A stretch of 64,000 bases of DNA from an uncultured Chloroflexia bacterium. GTDB taxonomy: Bacteria; Chloroflexota; Limnocylindria; Limnocylindrales; CSP1-4. The notes beneath the pieces were generated by a model that saw only the letters and a list, made by a program, of their open reading frames with translations, did no database searches and was not told where the DNA came from. The stretch is from assembly GCA_963766735.1 (NCBI GenBank), contig CAVYBU010000006.1, positions 141,272 through 205,271 on the forward strand. Direction: 5' to 3'. Position 1 is the stretch's first letter. Every line of letters starts with the position of its first letter. The position numbers and the translations under genes are program-made. Below are positions 44,659 to 52,392 of the stretch, in pieces.

Positions 44659-44976
44659 TCCCAGATAAGTCGCGGGTGAGCGGCGCGCGGCACCATGCCG
44701 CGCATGCCTGCGACGACCCATGGCTCCGACCGCCACGGAGCCAGATCCAACCACCCAGGGCCAACCGCCCGGGTTCCCGGGCACCCGCCGCTGGGCGGCC
44801 GGGTTGACGCTGCCGATCCCGCATCCCTATCGTTCGCGCCATCAGACGGCGCCGCTACCGGCAGCAGTTCCCGGCCGAACCCGTCGACGTCAGGGCACGA
44901 GGGACATGCGCTGGTCGCGGTCGGGCCTGGGATCGCAGGTTCAATGCTGTTCGCGGGACCGATCGGGCGGCTGGGG

Positions 44977-47900
44977 ATGAACCCGCTGCCGATCCAGCCG
45001 GCGAAGATCCACCCGCCGCTGCTCCGCCACGATGTCCTCTCCCGAGAGCGCCTCAACGGCTGGCTGGACAACGCGGCGAACGGGCGCGTCGCGCTGGTCA
45101 TCGCCGAGGCCGGGTTCGGCAAGACCACGTTCCTTGCGGACTGGGCGCGCCACACCCGACGCGCAACGGCGTGGTACCGCCTGGAACCGGATGACCGGGA
45201 CTGGCTCGCCTTCATCAGGCATCTGGTCGCAAGCGGCCGGGAGATCGACCCCGGGTTCGCTCCGGATACCTACGACCTGCTGGCCGCACTGGGGCCAGGT
45301 GGTCCGTCCAGGGATGACCTGATCGTCAGCGTCGCCCAGGAGATGGCCGAACTCGCATCGTCGCTGCCCAACGGCCTGAGCCTCCTGTTCGACGACTACC
45401 ACTCCGTCGACGGCAGCCCCGAGACCGAGCCCGTCATGAAGGCCCTGGTCGATCGAACGGGACCCGAATTCTCCCTGGTCATCGCGTCCCGGGCGGCGCC
45501 ATCGCTCGCCCTGGGCAGGCTGCGCGCCCGCGGCGCCCTCTCGCGGATCGACGGCGACGGCCTCTGTTTCGACGTCCCCGAGACGGAGCGCCTCTTCCGG
45601 GATGCCTACCACCAGCCCCTGGACGCGGACGTGGTGGTGGACCTGATCGCCCGGACGGAAGGCTGGGCCGCGCTCCTGTCGCTGGTCCACACGAGCCTTG
45701 AGGGCCGAGCGGCCGTCGAGGCTCGCGGGCTCGTCCGGCACCTGTCGGGCGCTCGCGGCGACATTCGTGACTATCTCGCCGAGGAGGTTCTCGACCACCT
45801 TGCTGATCATCTTGCTGACTTCTTGGTGCGCGCTTCGATCCTCGATGTTGTCGGGCCCGAGTCTGCGGCGCTACTTGGGATCGGCTCCAGAGATGAGTGC
45901 GTGGCAATGATCCGAGACGCCGCTGGCCTTGGTCTTTTGGTCGAGATCACGACGGGTGATGGCCACAGGTTCGTTCCGCTCGTTCGCGAGTACTTGTCCG
46001 CCCGTCTGAGCCGAGAAGAGGGGTGGGCCGCGATCCGCGATGCCCACATGATGCTGGGTGCGCACTACGTCGACTCTGACTGGAGGCTCGCCGCTCATCA
46101 CTATCGCGCTGCGGGGCAGCCGAGTTTGGCAGTCCAAGTCATCCAGAACTCCCTGAGCACCATCCTCGGCAGCGGACAGTACCGAGCTGCAGCTGACCTA
46201 CTCGCCGGTTCCGACGAACTCGTCGTAGGCGAGGTCCTTCGCTCACGACTCTTGCTACAAGTCGGCGCGGTCGCCGAAGCCCGATCCGCGTCGAGTTCCG
46301 CAGTCGCTGCCGCAGCATCGCACCGCCCAGCCGACCAATCGCTCGCTCTGCAGAACGCCGCAACGATCTCTCTGGTGTCTCGTCAGTACGAGGAAGGTCT
46401 CAAATACGCCGAAGAGGCGGAGGCGGCAGCCACCGACAGGTGGGAAGGGGAGCTCGCCCGGGCTCATGTCGCTCTGCTTGGCGCATCGGGAACTGGGAGC
46501 CTTCCGGCCCTGGTGCACCAACTTGAGCGCCTTCTGGGCGTCCAGCGCAAGCGGGCCTACTGGCATCACGCCGCCATCACAAGCCTCAACCTTGCTCAGG
46601 TCCTGGTTTGGCTGGACCGAGACACGGAAGCGCTGCGACATGCAGCCGACGCTGAAGAATTCCTGACCCGGTCATCCCAAGGCTATGAGTTGGTTTCCGT
46701 CAAGCTGGCGCAGGCTCACGCCGAGGCGCACCTCGGTCACTGGTGCGCAGCGCAGGCACTACTCGAGACCTCAGTTCAGACAGGCCACCCCGAGGGACAG
46801 GCTGAAGCGGTTCTAGACGCGGCAGGACTTGCTGCGTGGTTCGGGCCGAACGATCTCCCAGCGCGAATCCTGGCTCAGGTTCGGCGCGAGTCCCTCCCGT
46901 CCAGCTGGAAGGCACATTGGCGTATCGTCGATTTGTGGCTTGAGGAAGAGTCGCAGCGGCGGTCAGAGATCCTCGATGAGTTGCGGGCCGATCCGCCCCC
47001 CTCACTGGAGGTGGGGGCGGCATTTCGATGGCACTACACGAAGGCCAGGGCCTACCACGCTCAAGGGGATGCCAAAGGGTTCGACGACGAGATCGCGCGG
47101 GTTGACCAAGTCTGCCAACTCCAACGCTCACCGGTCGAGGAGCGGCTTCAGGCGTTGCTCCGTGGGGTCGCATCAGGACCACAGCATCTGTCGAGGGTGA
47201 TTGAGTCTTGGAGTCCGGCCTCCGCCCCTCTGATTGGGGTACTCGCGTACGAGGTCGCGGGCCTCCTAGGCTCCCTATCCGATGACGCCGCCGCTGCGGT
47301 TGGTCGTGCCGTGGCAGGTGCCCCATACAGATGGCGACGACCTCTGAGGGTCATGCTCGAGAAGGCCGGCCCGGCGCGACACCTGGACCGTATTGCACAA
47401 CTGCTTGAGGAGATCGGCGAATCGGCCGATGTTCAACTGCTTCGCGAGTACGGTCGTAGGTCGAAACGCGCGCGCGGAAACTGGGGCGAGGACTTGGGGC
47501 GACGACTCGCCCCGAGGGCGTTCATCGAGGATCTAGGCCCGATCTCGATCATCATTGGTGATCGCGTGATCGACGGGCGAGGAATCCGCCGCAGAGTCCT
47601 CGGCCTTCTTGCCTTTCTGATTAGCCAGCCCAACGGATCAGCAACGCCCGACCGCGTCATGGATGCACTGTGGCCTGAGTTGGACCCCGGGCAAGGGAGC
47701 AACTCGATCCACCAGACCATCTACTTCCTTCGGCGCGTGATCGACCCAGACTACCGGGCAGGCGTCTCTCCCGAGTACGTGCACTTCGATAGTGAGGTGA
47801 TCTGGCTCGATCGGGATCTCGTGCAGTGCAGGAGTTGGCGCTGTCAGGCTCTCCTAGGCAAGCGCGCCCTCTCGCCATCAGAGGTCGACGAACTCGTCCG

Positions 47901-48222
47901 GGACTACTGCGGGCGGTTCGCGGCCGAGTTCCCGTACGAGGACTGGGCGTCGGACTATCGGGACCATCTACATGCGCGCTACCTGGGCGAGATCGAGAAG
48001 GTCCTCTCAGAGCCTCGTCATAGTCCAGACCTGCGATGGAGATTATGGGTCGGCCAGCGGGCGCTTTCGGTCGATCCTGAAGCCGATGCGGTCGAGGCTC
48101 ACGTGATCCGGTTGTATCGCCGACTTGGGGCGTCTGCCGCCGCGGCAGAGCAGTACGGGCACTACTCGACCGTCATGAGAGACCAGCTCGGCGTCGAGCC
48201 CCCTGGGATCGAGGACCTCTGA
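44977..48222 (+). CDS. large transcriptional regulator: MalT-like ATPase, helical/TPR-like region, C-terminal winged-HTH + BTAD
   Basis: KIHPP, AEAGFGKTT (Walker A), FDDYH, TEGWAA, DYLAEEV; C-terminal LGP...LLAFL...DALWPE...IYFLRR...Y.G.F....PYEDW; start uncertain. Confidence 0.85.
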   Translation: MNPLPIQPAKIHPPLLRHDVLSRERLNGWLDNAANGRVALVIAEAGFGKTTFLADWARHTRRATAWYRLEPDDRDWLAFIRHLVASGREIDPGFAPDTYDLLAALGPGGPSRDDLIVSVAQEMAELASSLPNGLSLLFDDYHSVDGSPETEPVMKALVDRTGPEFSLVIASRAAPSLALGRLRARGALSRIDGDGLCFDVPETERLFRDAYHQPLDADVVVDLIARTEGWAALLSLVHTSLEGRAAVEARGLVRHLSGARGDIRDYLAEEVLDHLADHLADFLVRASILDVVGPESAALLGIGSRDECVAMIRDAAGLGLLVEITTGDGHRFVPLVREYLSARLSREEGWAAIRDAHMMLGAHYVDSDWRLAAHHYRAAGQPSLAVQVIQNSLSTILGSGQYRAAADLLAGSDELVVGEVLRSRLLLQVGAVAEARSASSSAVAAAASHRPADQSLALQNAATISLVSRQYEEGLKYAEEAEAAATDRWEGELARAHVALLGASGTGSLPALVHQLERLLGVQRKRAYWHHAAITSLNLAQVLVWLDRDTEALRHAADAEEFLTRSSQGYELVSVKLAQAHAEAHLGHWCAAQALLETSVQTGHPEGQAEAVLDAAGLAAWFGPNDLPARILAQVRRESLPSSWKAHWRIVDLWLEEESQRRSEILDELRADPPPSLEVGAAFRWHYTKARAYHAQGDAKGFDDEIARVDQVCQLQRSPVEERLQALLRGVASGPQHLSRVIESWSPASAPLIGVLAYEVAGLLGSLSDDAAAAVGRAVAGAPYRWRRPLRVMLEKAGPARHLDRIAQLLEEIGESADVQLLREYGRRSKRARGNWGEDLGRRLAPRAFIEDLGPISIIIGDRVIDGRGIRRRVLGLLAFLISQPNGSATPDRVMDALWPELDPGQGSNSIHQTIYFLRRVIDPDYRAGVSPEYVHFDSEVIWLDRDLVQCRSWRCQALLGKRALSPSEVDELVRDYCGRFAAEFPYEDWASDYRDHLHARYLGEIEKVLSEPRHSPDLRWRLWVGQRALSVDPEADAVEAHVIRLYRRLGASAAAAEQYGHYSTVMRDQLGVEPPGIEDL

Positions 48223-48316
48223 TCCAGCTGGTCGCGCCCGGCGACGAATGGGCGAGCGAGCGTGTCGGTATTGGCTTCCGAGTGGGCGGCCCGGTGGGCA
48301 TAGGTAGGGTTGCGTA

Positions 48317-48346
48317 TTGACCGGTGTAGTCCGCCGTGCATATAGT
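48317..48346 (+). promoter_or_regulatory. sigma70-type promoter of the riboswitch/peptide operon
   Basis: TTGACC-N18-TATAGT. Confidence 0.75.
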
Positions 48347-48388
48347 CCGGCCCTGCACCAGTACTTTCGTACGGTGCACCAAGGAAAC

Positions 48389-48464
48389 GCTTGGACGCGC
48401 TGATGCCACCACCTGAAATGGGCACTTAGGGTGGAGGCGGAGCGAGTAGTGCAACCGACCGGCT
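48389..48464 (+). ncRNA. c-di-GMP-II riboswitch aptamer
   Basis: GGA-CGC-GC-TGATG-[CCAC..CCT]-GAAAT-GGGCACTT-[AGG GTGG]..GGA-GCG-AGTAGTGCAACCGACC: conserved class II blocks, CGC/GCG stem, GCACT/AGTGC pseudoknot. Confidence 0.88.
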
Positions 48465-48489
48465 TTCGAGTCAGGTCGGTTTTCGTGTT
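48453..48489 (+). terminator. intrinsic terminator overlapping the aptamer 3' end (expression platform)
   Basis: AACCGACC-GGCT-TTCG-AGTC-A-GGTCGGTT followed by TTCGTGTT. Confidence 0.8.
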
Positions 48490-48524
48490 CCCGGCGGACA
48501 CGGAGGCCGCAAGGAGGTACGAGC

Positions 48525-48557
48525 GTGGCACCGAGCAAGGGCCTCAAGGGCTGGTAG
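48525..48557 (+). CDS. 10-aa micropeptide MAPSKGLKGW
   Basis: AAGGAGG at 48511-48517, 7 nt before GTG; ends LKGW like the LKGF end of the next ORF. Confidence 0.55.
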   Translation: MAPSKGLKGW

Positions 48558-48583
48558 GACCAGGATCGCGGGAGGATCGACCG

Positions 48584-48673
48584 ATGAAGGATCGCCTCAT
48601 GCGACTCCTGGCCACTCTCGGCGCAGTCGCCGCATTGGCGCTCGCCGGAGGCGCGTCGCTAAAGGGCTTCTAG
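48584..48673 (+). CDS. 29-aa signal-peptide-like precursor MKDRLMRLLATLGAVAALALAGGASLKGF
   Basis: GGAGG RBS 8 nt before ATG; basic n-region, hydrophobic h-region, short polar tail. Confidence 0.8.
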   Translation: MKDRLMRLLATLGAVAALALAGGASLKGF

Positions 48674-48758
48674 AAGCAGGCAAGGGCCTCAGTACACAAG
48701 TCCTCTTCACTTGTGGGTCGAAGGGGCTAGAGTCCCACCGTTCGGGAACTGAGGACGA

Positions 48759-50123
48759 ATGCCGACAAAGCTGAAGCTCTACATTATTGGAGTCGTAGCG
48801 ACGAGCGCTATCGCGCTCGCTGCTACGACTCGTTTGATTCCAGTCGAGGACGGGGTTGCCCTGACTGTGGGGCCGTTCGGATCTCTCTCGACTCAGGCAG
48901 GCCTCGCATTCTGGTGTGCGGTGACCCTGATCGCGTCCGCGCTTCCCGTCCGAATGCCTCGCGGAACCATGGTGGGCGTTTCGATCGCGCCGCTGATTGC
49001 GGCCACGGTCCTGGGCGGTCCGACTGCCGGAGCCTGGGTCGCGCTCATCGGGACGACGGAGGTGCGTGAGCTGCGCGGCCGTGTTCCGTGGTACGGCTCG
49101 CTGGCCAACCACGCCGGGCTGATGATCCCCGCGATGGTGGCCGGCATGGTCATGCGAGTACTCGGCGTCCCGGGGAGCGAGGAGTACGCGATCACCTTCA
49201 TCGCGGCTCTGATCGGTGCGGCCGCCTTCTTCCTGGTCAACGCGACGCTCACCGCTGCCGCGGTGGCCCTCCAAACTGAGCAGCCATTTCGCAGCGTGTT
49301 GCTGGGCGACGCCAAGGTCTTCGCCACGAACCTAATTGGGCTTGCCCCGCTCGCTTGGCTCATGGCCCAGATGTACGAGGTAGCTTGGTGGGCGAGCTTG
49401 CTGTTCGCCGTTCCGCTCTACACGACGCGGCTCGCGTACCACAACATCATCGAGATGCGCGAGATGTTCACTCAGACCATCACCGCGCTGGCTGGGGCCG
49501 TGGACAAGCGCGATCCGTACACCAGCAAGCACTCGTGGCGGGTCAAGGAGATCGCAGGCGATATCGGACGGGTCATGCGCCTGGGCGAGAGTGACCTCGA
49601 GGCCCTCGAATGGGGCGGCCTGCTGCACGACGTGGGCAAGATCGGCGTGCGGGACGCGGTGCTGCTCAAGCAGGAGAAGCTCAACAAGGAGGAACGGGCG
49701 CAGATGAACGCGCACCCGGTCCTCGGTGCGGAGATCATCGCGCCGGTGACGCGGCTGTCCCGGGAGCTGCCGATCATCCGCCACCACCACGAGTGGTACA
49801 ACGGCTCGGGGTACCCGGACCGGCTGATCGGGGACGAGATCCCGCTGCTGGCACGCATCCTTCACGTCGCGGACGCCTTCGAGGCGATGACCGCCGCCCG
49901 GCCATACCGGATGACGCCGCTGACCTCGGAGCAGGCACTGGGCGAGCTGCGCAAGTTCGCCGGCGTCCAGTTCGATCCCAAGGTGGTGGACGCCTTCGTG
50001 AAGACAGACTGGGCCCAGGATGTGGCCGACCCGGGCCGGACGGCGCAGGCGCGACCGATCCCGCTGATCTCGCAGCACGCGAACCGGACGGCCAACGCCG
50101 TTGCCACTCCCGACGCAACCTGA
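48759..50123 (+). CDS. HD-GYP phosphodiesterase with N-terminal multi-TM sensor domain
   Basis: About 6-7 TM, then DPYTSKHSWRV, LLHDVGKIG, HHEWYNGSGYP, VADAFEAMT..RPYR, QFDP. Confidence 0.93.
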   Translation: MPTKLKLYIIGVVATSAIALAATTRLIPVEDGVALTVGPFGSLSTQAGLAFWCAVTLIASALPVRMPRGTMVGVSIAPLIAATVLGGPTAGAWVALIGTTEVRELRGRVPWYGSLANHAGLMIPAMVAGMVMRVLGVPGSEEYAITFIAALIGAAAFFLVNATLTAAAVALQTEQPFRSVLLGDAKVFATNLIGLAPLAWLMAQMYEVAWWASLLFAVPLYTTRLAYHNIIEMREMFTQTITALAGAVDKRDPYTSKHSWRVKEIAGDIGRVMRLGESDLEALEWGGLLHDVGKIGVRDAVLLKQEKLNKEERAQMNAHPVLGAEIIAPVTRLSRELPIIRHHHEWYNGSGYPDRLIGDEIPLLARILHVADAFEAMTAARPYRMTPLTSEQALGELRKFAGVQFDPKVVDAFVKTDWAQDVADPGRTAQARPIPLISQHANRTANAVATPDAT

Positions 50124-50232: not shown

Positions 50233-52392
50233 ATGCTGATCGGCGGTATCGCGCTCGGGCTGGTGCTCGGTCTGCTCCTGGGCGGGCGCCTGGAGAACCT
50301 GGCCGGCATCCGGCTGCGCTTCCTGCCGCTGCTGTTCGCGGCGGTGATCCTGCGGTTTGCGACGGAGGCGCTGCTCGGGATGGGCGTCGAGGTCGTGGAC
50401 CTGCTGCGCGTGCCGCTGCTCGGAGGCGCGTACGGGCTCCTGCTCTTCACCCTCTGGCACAACCGCTCGTACCCGGGCCTGGCGCTGGCCTTCATCGGGA
50501 TCGCGTCCAACACCCTGGTGATCGTGTGGAACGGGGGCTGGATGCCGGTGTGGCAGCCCGCCTACGACGCGTCCGGGCTGGCGGGACCGCTCTACTCGCA
50601 GCTCCACTTCCCGATCAGTGGCACCGGCGCCGAGTTCCTGGTCCACCTGGGCCCGCTGGCGGACGTCGTCCCGTTCCCCATCCCACCGCTGCAGAACGTC
50701 GCCTCGGTCGGTGACCTGTTCCTGACGGCCGGCCTGGCCATCTTCCTGTTCGCCACCCTGATGAGAACGCCGGCCGACACGCAGACGGCGATCGACGAGG
50801 CAAAGACGGGTCGCTACCTGGGCCTGTCGGGCACGGCCCGCCTGCCGAGGCGTGGCGAGGCGGCGGGGGACGCGACGAGCCTGGGCGTCCGCCCGGGAAC
50901 AGGCCTGACGCCCGGCCTGCAGGAGGCCGCGGCCCTCGAACGCCCGCTGATCATGGGCGCCAGCGGCATGGGCATGTCATCGCCGTCCCAGACGTCGCTC
51001 GCGTCGGAGGGAGCCACCGCCGGAACCGGAGTCGCGGCCGCCACCGCCACCGCCTTCCCCGGCGGCATTGCGATCCCCCGCCCGCGTCCTCGCCGGCGCG
51101 CGCTCGCCCCGCGCGTCCGCCGCCACCCGTACGTGCGCCTGGCGCTCAACGGCTCGTTCTCGGCGCTATGGGTGGGCCAGGTGATCAGCCTGTTCGGGGA
51201 TCGCGTCAACCAGATCGCCCTGGGCGCCTTCGTCTACGAGCTGACCGACTCCCCGTTCGCCGTGGCGCTGACCTTCTTCATGGGGACGATCCCCAACCTG
51301 GTCTTCTCGCCGATCGCCGGGGCCTACGTGGACCGCTGGGACAAGAAGCAGGTGCTGGTGGTCTCGGACATCCTCCGGGCGGCGCTGACCCTGCTCGTGC
51401 CGGTGGCCGTCCTGATCAACGTCTGGCTGGCGTACCCGCTGGTCTTCCTGATCACGACGGTCTCGATCTTCTTCCGACCGGCGCGGGTTGCGATCCTGCC
51501 GCGCCTGGTCCCCAAGCGGGACCTGCTCTCCGCCAACTCCGCGATGTGGGTGGGAGAGACGCTGGCCGACGTCATCAACTACCCGATCGCCGGCCTGTTC
51601 GTGGTCTTCCTGGCTGGATCGCTGCCGATCGCGTTCTGGTTCGATGCCGCCACCTACCTGGTCTCGGCCGCCCTGCTGGCCTCGATCGCGATGCCGCCGC
51701 TGGCCCGGCGAATCCGCGGCACGGACGCCGCCGATGGTCCGGAGGGAGCGAACGAGGGCGAGGGCGGGACAGACTCCCAGACCTCGATCCTCACCGACAT
51801 GAAGGTGGGATGGGCATTCCTCCGCCACGAGACCGTCCTGCTGGCGAACACGATCCAGGGGACGGCCGGCCAGTTCGCGGTCGGCATCGTCACGGTGTCC
51901 GCCATCATCCTGGCGAGGCAGATCACGGGTTCGGATGGCAACGAGTACCGCGCGACCTACGCGTTCATGGAGACGGCCATCGGCCTCGGCAACCTGATGG
52001 GCGGCTTCGCCCTGGGCATGGTGGCCACGCGCGTCCGCAAGGGGCGGCTGGTGATCGCCGCCTACACGGTCTTCGGCGTCCTGATCTTCCTGGTCGGCCT
52101 GACCGATTCGATCCCGCTGATCCTGGGGCTGCTGTTCGGGGTCGGCGTGGCGAACATGGCGTTCGTCATCCCCAGCCAGACGATGTTCCAGGAGCGCACG
52201 CCGCCGGAGCTGATGGGGCGCGTGGTCAGCCTCCGGTTTGCCCTCGTGTTCGGCGGTATGTCCGTGGCCATGGCCGTGGGCGGCCTCCTGGTGGGGATCT
52301 TCGGGCCGAGCCCGGTGATCGCGGCGGCCGGACTGCTGTCGATCGTCGCCGGTCTCGCGGGGCTCGGCGTCAAGGCGCTGCGGGAGGCGTGA
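50233..52392 (+). CDS. DUF5317-like membrane domain fused to an MFS transporter
   Basis: N-terminal GGRLENL, SN..VI..NGGWMPV, LAD, SVGD; C-terminal LWVGQVISLFGD, GAYVDRWDKK, QERTPPELMGRV. Confidence 0.85.
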   Translation: MLIGGIALGLVLGLLLGGRLENLAGIRLRFLPLLFAAVILRFATEALLGMGVEVVDLLRVPLLGGAYGLLLFTLWHNRSYPGLALAFIGIASNTLVIVWNGGWMPVWQPAYDASGLAGPLYSQLHFPISGTGAEFLVHLGPLADVVPFPIPPLQNVASVGDLFLTAGLAIFLFATLMRTPADTQTAIDEAKTGRYLGLSGTARLPRRGEAAGDATSLGVRPGTGLTPGLQEAAALERPLIMGASGMGMSSPSQTSLASEGATAGTGVAAATATAFPGGIAIPRPRPRRRALAPRVRRHPYVRLALNGSFSALWVGQVISLFGDRVNQIALGAFVYELTDSPFAVALTFFMGTIPNLVFSPIAGAYVDRWDKKQVLVVSDILRAALTLLVPVAVLINVWLAYPLVFLITTVSIFFRPARVAILPRLVPKRDLLSANSAMWVGETLADVINYPIAGLFVVFLAGSLPIAFWFDAATYLVSAALLASIAMPPLARRIRGTDAADGPEGANEGEGGTDSQTSILTDMKVGWAFLRHETVLLANTIQGTAGQFAVGIVTVSAIILARQITGSDGNEYRATYAFMETAIGLGNLMGGFALGMVATRVRKGRLVIAAYTVFGVLIFLVGLTDSIPLILGLLFGVGVANMAFVIPSQTMFQERTPPELMGRVVSLRFALVFGGMSVAMAVGGLLVGIFGPSPVIAAAGLLSIVAGLAGLGVKALREA

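Follow-up and report, generated by a model that had tools for sequence, protein, structure and literature searches.

The question raised by this locus is what a 29-codon open reading frame, located between a regulator gene and the gene of a c-di-GMP phosphodiesterase in an uncultured Chloroflexia bacterium, does for the cell. The frame was found in a stretch of 64,000 nucleotides of contig CAVYBU010000006.1 (assembly GCA_963766735.1), in the following called the window, and all positions without a contig name refer to it (Table 1). In a sequence-only reading the frame had been described as the precursor of a peptide with a basic head, a hydrophobic core and a short tail, carrying a lipobox-like site without cysteine (LAG/G, the slash marking the cut), and cleavage at this site or at GGA/S was proposed to release the tail as a pheromone. 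Proteins of this size are mostly absent from genome annotation and from family libraries. The frame was followed by comparison of genomes.

Table 1. Features of the window around the 29-codon ORF (sORF) and the first micro-ORF (uORF).
Feature	Position	Strand	Details
tRNA gene	1913-1986	minus	63.5 bits
MalT-like ATPase regulator, C-terminal winged helix and BTAD (SARP-type) tail	44695..48222	+	1175 residues
Promoter-like site	48317..48346	+	TTGACC-18-TATAGT; 10/12 matches; 1 site versus 0.1 expected
c-di-GMP-II riboswitch aptamer	48384..48467	+	RF01786; 59.5 bits, gathering score 53.5, full length 1-84
Terminator-like hairpin and T-rich run	48451..48490	+	stem 48457-48481, tail TTCGTGTTCC
uORF with AAGGAGG ribosome binding site (RBS)	48511..48557	+	GTG 48525 to TAG 48557; VAPSKGLKGW, 10 codons
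RBS of sORF	48570..48576	+	GGGAGGA, 7 nt ahead of ATG 48584
sORF	48584..48673	+	ATG 48584, stop TAG 48671-48673; translation MKDRLMRLLATLGAVAALALAGGASLKGF
Structured spacer	48674..48758	+	85 nt; helix CCUCAGU (48687-48693) : ACUGAGG (48748-48754)
HD-GYP c-di-GMP phosphodiesterase, N-terminal multi-span membrane domain	48759..50123	+	Pfam HD_5 1e-37
DUF5317 membrane domain fused to MFS transporter	50233..52392	+	DUF5317 2.8e-21, MFS_1 1.7e-19, MFS_3 8.4e-17

Coding status of the 29-codon ORF

The frame of 29 codons (sORF) lies where it had been located before, and its conservation identifies it as a real gene and not as a product of chance. Among the 23 loci of the same genus that contain the start of the HD-GYP gene, an intact sORF of 29 codons is present at the equivalent position in 21; in the remaining two (L017 and L019) the sORF is frameshifted and the HD-GYP gene is broken, too. 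The pooled Nei-Gojobori estimate for the 21 intact loci resulted in a dN/dS of 0.144 for the sORF versus 1.31 and 3.35 for the same DNA read in the two alternative frames. Of its 29 codons, 17, 13 and 26 show variable columns at codon positions 1, 2 and 3, respectively, the tail codons for Gly, Ala, Ser, Leu and Arg/Lys vary synonymously, and the RBS is kept as GGAGGA. The sORF is a translated coding gene under constraint. That there is no functional gene, the frame being open by chance or by constraint on the leader RNA, might be argued from the strong conservation of the entire leader at the nucleotide level inside the genus and from a peptide belonging to no Pfam or NCBIfam family, but this is very unlikely in view of the variation at third positions, the difference in dN/dS between the frames, the synonymous changes in the tail codons and a length of 29 codons that is held across 23 genera.

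A generic filter for ORFs of this build (24-42 amino acids, basic head, 15-24 uncharged hydrophobic residues, short basic tail) returned only seven ORFs from the 3.62-Mb genome of the organism itself, two of which are both copies of the sORF. The exact product is already contained in a large protein collection as an unnamed singleton. Neither Pfam nor NCBIfam holds a family matching the peptide, and an 80-residue mechanically called ORF containing the sORF had no match among proteins of 30-43 residues, a range outside of which entries of 29 residues lie.

Build of the peptide and possible cleavage

The division into three parts proposed from the single sequence is correct: the head is basic, the core is a run of 19 uncharged residues and the tail reads AGGASL[KR]GF. 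In 81 distinct peptides of the majority type, the net charge within the first eight residues is +2 or +3 in 80, the longest uncharged stretch comprises 19 residues in 73 and 22 residues in seven, and the tail carries a charge of +1 in 79. The sequence of the hydrophobic core drifts freely while its hydrophobicity is kept (dN/dS 0.22). The tail had been expected to be conserved if it were the cargo, and it is indeed the most conserved part, with a dN/dS of 0.049 for codons 20-29: inside the majority type, to which this invariance is confined, A21, G22, G23, A24, G28 and F29 are invariant, S25 is found in 80, K/R27 in 79, L26 in 78 and A19 in 74 of the 81 distinct peptides. The 51 loci obtained by a pattern scan were selected with the tail as part of the pattern and are unusable as proof of its invariance.

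As to the proposed cleavage, LspA acts only on a lipid-modified cysteine at position +1. The resemblance of LAG/G to a lipobox stands, but cleavage by LspA does not, the residue following L-A-G being glycine in 81 of 81 peptides and the consensus being devoid of cysteine, and a lipoprotein signal peptide processed by Lgt and LspA is rejected on these grounds. Genuine LAGC lipoboxes are present elsewhere in the same genome. A signal peptidase I site, A19-x-A21/G22, fits the peptide better than the LspA site, judged from the residues around the putative cut. A positively charged n-region, an h-region and small residues at positions -3 and -1 are all present as in a Sec-type signal peptide, as far as a sequence pattern goes, and genuine signal peptides of the same genome resemble the sORF peptide. 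The uncharged stretch, in which Ala and Gly abound, has little length for a segment crossing the membrane and resembles the core of a signal peptide just as well.

The riboswitch-controlled leader and the first micro-ORF

Three elements around the sORF had been absent from the earlier description: the riboswitch, the first micro-ORF and a hairpin that leads from the stop codon to the next gene. Both hexamers of the promoter-like site are conserved in the alignment of the genus. The aptamer of a class-II c-di-GMP riboswitch follows. Of 20 loci from other genera, 19 likewise have this riboswitch ahead of the sORF, with a score above the gathering score in 16. Because the 5′ arm of the terminator-like hairpin overlaps the 3′ end of the aptamer, we infer that the element works as an ON switch.

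Class-II c-di-GMP riboswitches of Clostridioides difficile and its relatives control adhesin and pilus genes. The element described here belongs to the same aptamer family, RF01786, and its terminator overlaps the end of the aptamer as it does in ON switches; unlike the elements of C. difficile, it precedes two micro-ORFs and a c-di-GMP-degrading enzyme, an arrangement that would constitute a feedback loop. Among the papers listed for c-di-GMP-II riboswitches together with HD-GYP proteins, none deals with this arrangement in the portions of text available from them. Literature searches, with supplements outside their scope, returned no paper describing both micro-ORFs and none linking Limnocylindria with c-di-GMP.

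The first micro-ORF (uORF) is present in 82 of 87 unique loci, comprises 9-10 codons in 80 of these 82 and ends with K-[GPAS]-[WFY]-stop in the 82. Its middle codons are approximately neutral, with a pN/pS of about 1.1. The last three hardly vary, synonymous positions included, although W, F and Y are interchangeable. It is read as a regulatory upstream ORF. In three loci (L071, L050 and L106) the last unit of the uORF is expanded in frame as tandem repeats. The stop codon of the uORF is located 2-32 nt ahead of the start of the sORF. Both ORFs avoid TGA compared to a genome background of 71% TGA: the uORF stops at TAG in 67, at TAA in 12 and at TGA in three of 82 loci, and the sORF at TAG in 70, at TGA in 14 and at TAA in three of 87 loci. 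Stop codons read by RF1 (TAG and TAA) thereby account for 79/82 uORFs and 73/87 sORFs, versus 29% in the genome background.

Spacer hairpin and presence in RNA libraries

The helix CCUCAGU:ACUGAGG in the spacer behind the sORF covers the RBS of the HD-GYP gene and is found in the MFE as well as in the centroid fold. Folded alone, the spacer of the window is unremarkable (z -1.41). Alignments are unreliable in the variable helices of the spacers, which is the reason why an alignment-free test was used that compares the duplex formed by a locus' own two flanks with duplexes of swapped flanks: in 79 loci the flank following the sORF stop pairs with the flank preceding the HD-GYP RBS with -16.5 kcal/mol, versus -12.45 +/- 0.35 kcal/mol for permuted pairs, and none of 500 permutations was as low as the own pairs. 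In 55 of the 79 loci the best duplex begins at most 5 nt from the first base of the stop codon. RNAalifold resulted in only three pairs for a MAFFT alignment of 40 spacers and in one small hairpin for 14 spacers. The HD-GYP gene starts 64-91 nt past the sORF in 29 of 30 loci, the contig of the thirtieth ending too soon. Translation of the sORF is probably coupled to the HD-GYP gene via the hairpin starting at the sORF stop.

Contigs from four sediment RNA libraries of four studies cover positions 48383-48681, the best pieces showing 0-1 differences, and one piece of 289 nt (48393-48681) crosses the terminator and the entire sORF; such contigs do not resolve transcript ends and may include DNA carried over into the libraries. 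They show that the leader is present in RNA libraries and weakly suggest that its RNA is abundant. Parts of the window that were not covered, i.e., the HD-GYP coding region in three of the four runs, were not counted as evidence. Contig pieces of two of the studies end at 48680 and 48681, 7-8 nt past the sORF stop and with no loose ends; these ends may mark the place where an abundant leader RNA is processed or terminated, or may be an accident of the assembly.

Gene order and distribution in the family

The genes surrounding the sORF are kept in their order. In 46 loci, which come from the pattern scan whose pattern includes the sORF tail, the regulator was found in 41, the HD-GYP gene in 46, the DUF5317 domain in 40 and the MFS transporter in 39; most misses are contig ends, and in the six loci without DUF5317 the stored locus stops short. 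Identities across these 46 loci amount to about 60% for HD-GYP, 55% for MFS, 50% for DUF5317 and 40% for the regulator. The regulator matches Pfam BTAD (8.6e-5) and, weakly, AAA_16 and Trans_reg_C, and it matches the NCBIfam MalT model with 1.5e-48, which is under its cut-off. The N-terminal part of the HD-GYP protein reaches 23.4 bits for MASE9, slightly below the cut-off of 24.3. The surrounding 22 kb contain neither a gene for an Opp-type peptide importer nor one for a processing protease. At about 45600-49600, a segment that begins midway in the regulator gene and extends into the first half of HD-GYP, the GC content is 0.61-0.65 compared to 0.69-0.75 in the flanking DNA.

A second copy of the module was observed in the same genome outside of the window (C10:4657-7033). 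It comprises a riboswitch of 59.5 bits and encodes an identical 29-residue peptide, and its HD-GYP sequence is 87% identical and split over two frames. This copy may have arisen as a paralogue, or it may stem from a variant strain binned into the same assembly, which is rated as 4.2% contaminated. Eight further c-di-GMP-II-like matches of the genome score 28-45 bits, under the gathering score (e.g., C7:2913-2999, C7:5530-5616, C7:8174-8259, C2:353897-353982 and C8:11144-11226); most of them lie 12-43 nt before genes with signal-peptide or lipoprotein-like starts, and the three on C7 stand in a row about 2.6 kb apart.

A profile built from the 21 sORF peptides of the genus has matches in 114 of the 208 genomes sampled from the family, which belongs to Candidatus Limnocylindria, and in 23 of its 36 genera, usually one per genome, in a tally that takes in genome G257, which is flagged as unpublished. 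The sensor domain of the HD-GYP protein is found in 173 of the 208 genomes (the flagged G257 and G235 being taken in). Four matches in a small-genome sister family were set aside, having E-values of 0.006-0.007 and lying inside ORFs of 340-370 residues. In profile-negative genera an ORF of the same build with 28-30 codons was recognized by eye before the HD-GYP gene in 19 of 20 loci; the generic filter returns it in 14 of them. All 20 loci also show a first micro-ORF with the end [K/R]-x-W. The tails in these genera consist of a Gly/Ala cluster, a hydrophobic residue, Arg, Pro or another residue, and a hydrophobic end.

DUF5317 and related micro-ORFs in Chloroflexota

Peptides of the same build also occur beyond the family and beside DUF5317. 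The domain is present in 89 of 301 sampled Chloroflexota genomes (taking in the flagged G491), and its neighbours in 30 of those loci include an HD-GYP match in 15, a SARP/BTAD regulator in seven and an MFS transporter in five. In five of five such HD-GYP loci, taken from four other families of Chloroflexota, an ORF of 30-32 codons precedes the HD-GYP gene. Its product again starts with a basic head, continues with a hydrophobic span and has a basic and an aromatic residue in its short tail. As an example, locus L171 (G351:C28:42050-43100, minus strand) shows a c-di-GMP-II riboswitch, which with 52.7 bits is slightly under the gathering score of 53.5 bits, followed by two identical tandem micro-ORFs of 31 codons and then by HD-GYP. 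In another distant locus a terminator-like hairpin of ten pairs separates the micro-ORF from the enzyme gene.

Furthermore, of 121 genomes from the family, 91 encode a stand-alone paralogue of DUF5317 (taking in the flagged G257). In 20 of 30 paralogue loci (among L175 and L176-L205) micro-ORFs of this build, singly or in pairs, are located on the same strand directly downstream of it. These ORFs comprise 28-34 codons and fall into two types, A and B, with pN/pS values of 0.49 and 0.53. Both have a small-residue cluster followed by an x-R-W end, leaving only 2-6 residues beyond the cluster. Their stop codons (type A: TGA 8, TAG 6, TAA 2; type B: TAG 7, TGA 2) are too mixed for deciding between roles. 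The neighbourhood of the paralogue, including the adjoining GGDEF-EAL gene, was read in one locus, L175 (G075:C7:298500-308500), where a stand-alone DUF5317 gene, a membrane GGDEF-EAL gene, a second DUF5317 gene and micro-ORFs form a row. The next gene on this strand looked like an unrelated biosynthetic enzyme, judged from its translation. The micro-ORFs linked to DUF5317 cannot be leaders of a c-di-GMP gene because they stand downstream at the end of the row and, in L175, are followed by this unrelated-looking gene.

A connection of the Rosetta-stone kind between DUF5317 and c-di-GMP enzymes is given by L206 3016-4299 (G249:C204), in another genus. Here an in-frame fusion joins DUF5317 to the membrane sensor domain of a GGDEF-EAL-type protein, and an MFS gene immediately precedes it; the open frame, of 1054 residues, is reported from two genomes of this genus. 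Comparison of 35 sequences of the DUF5317 domain (50233-50790 in the window) revealed N100, G102, M104 and P105 (NGGxMP motif) as invariant, as well as D144, P147, P149 and the residues S158, G160 and D161 (SxGD motif). The predicted model consists of five helices and a small four-stranded sheet (pLDDT 89.5); a fold search with it returned no match in the PDB at E <= 0.001. An aspartyl intramembrane protease, considered on account of two invariant Asp, one of them in a GD motif, is unsupported since no PDB match was obtained. A full-text literature search found no paper naming DUF5317.

Function of the sORF peptide

Our preferred explanation, to which we assign a probability of about one half, is that the sORF product works in trans, as a micro-protein with a single membrane span belonging to a module of DUF5317 and c-di-GMP enzymes. 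The peptide would insert into the membrane with a single span, the basic N-terminus facing the inside and the tail GGASL[K/R]GF the outside, and would join DUF5317 and the enzyme's sensor domain as a subunit or tethered ligand acting in trans. Its production would be confined to high c-di-GMP concentrations, at which the ligand-bound class-II riboswitch would block formation of the terminator. Translation of the sORF would then help to open the hairpin running from its stop codon to the RBS of the HD-GYP gene, and by this coupled translation peptide and phosphodiesterase would be produced together.

The membrane micro-protein is ranked first because DUF5317 and a membrane-sensor c-di-GMP enzyme are common to all these micro-peptides. 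Moreover, the conserved hydrophobic core favors a role in trans since a peptide acting purely in cis would not need hydrophobicity. One hydrophobic span, a length below 50 residues and a conserved neighbourhood of membrane proteins, the features by which small single-span membrane proteins are recognized, were all found. Prediction of a complex of the peptide, the membrane domain of HD-GYP and DUF5317 gave a median score of 0.54, and 0.57 was obtained with an unrelated protein replacing HD-GYP, values that speak neither for nor against binding.

Small membrane regulators of sensors and transporters are known from MgrB with PhoQ, AcrZ with AcrB and KdpF with KdpABC. Like these, the sORF peptide has fewer than 50 residues and one hydrophobic span, is encoded beside or co-regulated with its presumed membrane partner and was overlooked by family libraries. 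In contrast to them it shows no sequence relation, is encoded in a riboswitch-controlled leader, has a fixed tail predicted to be external, and would have DUF5317 and a c-di-GMP enzyme as partners. Some observations are left unexplained by a role in trans: the uORF, which is devoid of a hydrophobic part, has a similar [K]-[small]-[aromatic]-stop end, TGA is avoided in both ORFs and the hairpin starts at the sORF stop. The similar ends, the avoidance of TGA and the stop-anchored hairpin point to roles in cis.

In its pure form, such a role would make the sORF a leader acting only in cis, which we regard as rather unlikely. Ribosomes finishing or pausing at [K/R]-[G/P]-[F/W]-UAG would remodel the downstream RNA, and a translational relay of two ORFs would set translation of the respective next ORF and finally of HD-GYP, while the released peptide would have no task of its own. 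This would account for the similar end motif and the shared preference for RF1-read stop codons in uORF and sORF, for the distance of only 2-32 nt between them, for a locus-specific duplex beginning within 5 nt of the sORF stop in most loci, and for the strongest constraint being found in the last ten codons of an ORF that keeps to 29 codons. Moreover, PMC10987492 describes arrest peptides in which an N-terminal signal is combined with conservation of the C-terminus and the RBS of the following gene is masked. However, the hydrophobic, basic-headed build is kept throughout the phylum and would be unneeded for such a role, micro-ORFs of the same build end DUF5317 operons with nothing downstream to regulate, one distant locus carries two identical tandem copies, and release by force as in SecM is impossible as the hydrophobic part of the 29-mer is still within the ribosome when the stop codon is reached.

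The sORF was compared with Sec/YidC monitoring substrates and RAPP-type arrest peptides such as SecM, MifM, VemP and ApdA/ApdP (PMC10987492, PMC7897499, PMC10951233). Shared with these are the N-terminal signal or membrane segment, the conserved C-terminal motif with a basic residue two positions ahead of the last residue, and a stem-loop at the next RBS. In PMC10987492, arrest peptides monitoring Sec or YidC lie upstream of secA, secDF or yidC, the search asks for a spacer of >30 residues from the signal to the conserved C-terminal end, and some arrest peptides act at the stop codon. The sORF, in contrast, is followed by an HD-GYP phosphodiesterase and not by sec or yidC, has about eight residues between the hydrophobic part and the end compared to the >30 asked for, contains no Pro-Pro, and its putative pause would be at the stop codon. 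Two of the four features used in this search, the sec/yidC position and the spacer of >30 residues, are thus absent from the sORF.

Even less probable, in our view, is an exported peptide that would be cut by signal peptidase I (A-x-A/GG or GGA/S) to release a C-terminal piece of 5-8 residues, serving as an extracellular signal for the sensor domain of HD-GYP, for DUF5317 or for the upstream regulator. For this explanation speak the n-region, the h-region and the small-residue c-region, with A19 (74/81) and A21 (81/81) fitting the -3/-1 rule ahead of the most conserved segment, as do the similar look of genuine signal peptides from the same genome and the presence of an MFS transporter and two sensor proteins inside the same block. 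Precedents exist in the Phr pentapeptides of Bacillus and the SHP peptides of streptococci, pheromone precursors of Firmicutes that are short and have a basic N-terminus, a hydrophobic middle and 5-8 active residues at the C-terminus. The sORF peptide, from the phylum Chloroflexota, would share all of these features, its C-terminal 5-8 residues being the active ones. However, neither an RRNPP-type receptor nor Opp importer or PptAB/Eep-type genes for export or processing were seen near the sORF, and no Opp-type importer or protease gene lies within 22 kb. Without a cysteine the LspA route does not apply, the type A and B micro-ORFs would leave almost no cargo behind their small-residue cluster, and Sec export of a precursor of 29 residues would need a post-translational route. 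The tail, moreover, is invariant across many genera, unlike strain-specific pheromones.

Returning to the membrane micro-protein, a wider and at present doubtful proposal takes membrane micro-peptides that combine a cluster of small residues with a [K/R]-aromatic tail as the missing ligands or co-receptors of DUF5317. They would belong to a phylum-wide and so far unrecognized c-di-GMP module with HD-GYP or GGDEF-EAL sensors, and in Limnocylindria a riboswitch and a termination-sensitive micro-ORF relay ([K/R]-[G/P]-[F/W]-UAG) would act in series on one phosphodiesterase.

Implications

Cyclic di-GMP is the main bacterial switch between attached and free-living states, and the lineage carrying the sORF is abundant yet uncultured. 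The sORF peptide stands at the centre of what would be a c-di-GMP feedback loop, and it is better conserved than its large neighbours, with a tail that is invariant in the majority type compared to identities of about 40-60% for the neighbouring proteins. The repeated occurrence of DUF5317 with a membrane-sensor c-di-GMP enzyme and with one or two micro-peptides offers a first functional handle on this domain. Moreover, the succession of riboswitch, uORF, sORF and hairpin provides a compact system for asking whether controls by RNA and by nascent peptides stack on one enzyme.
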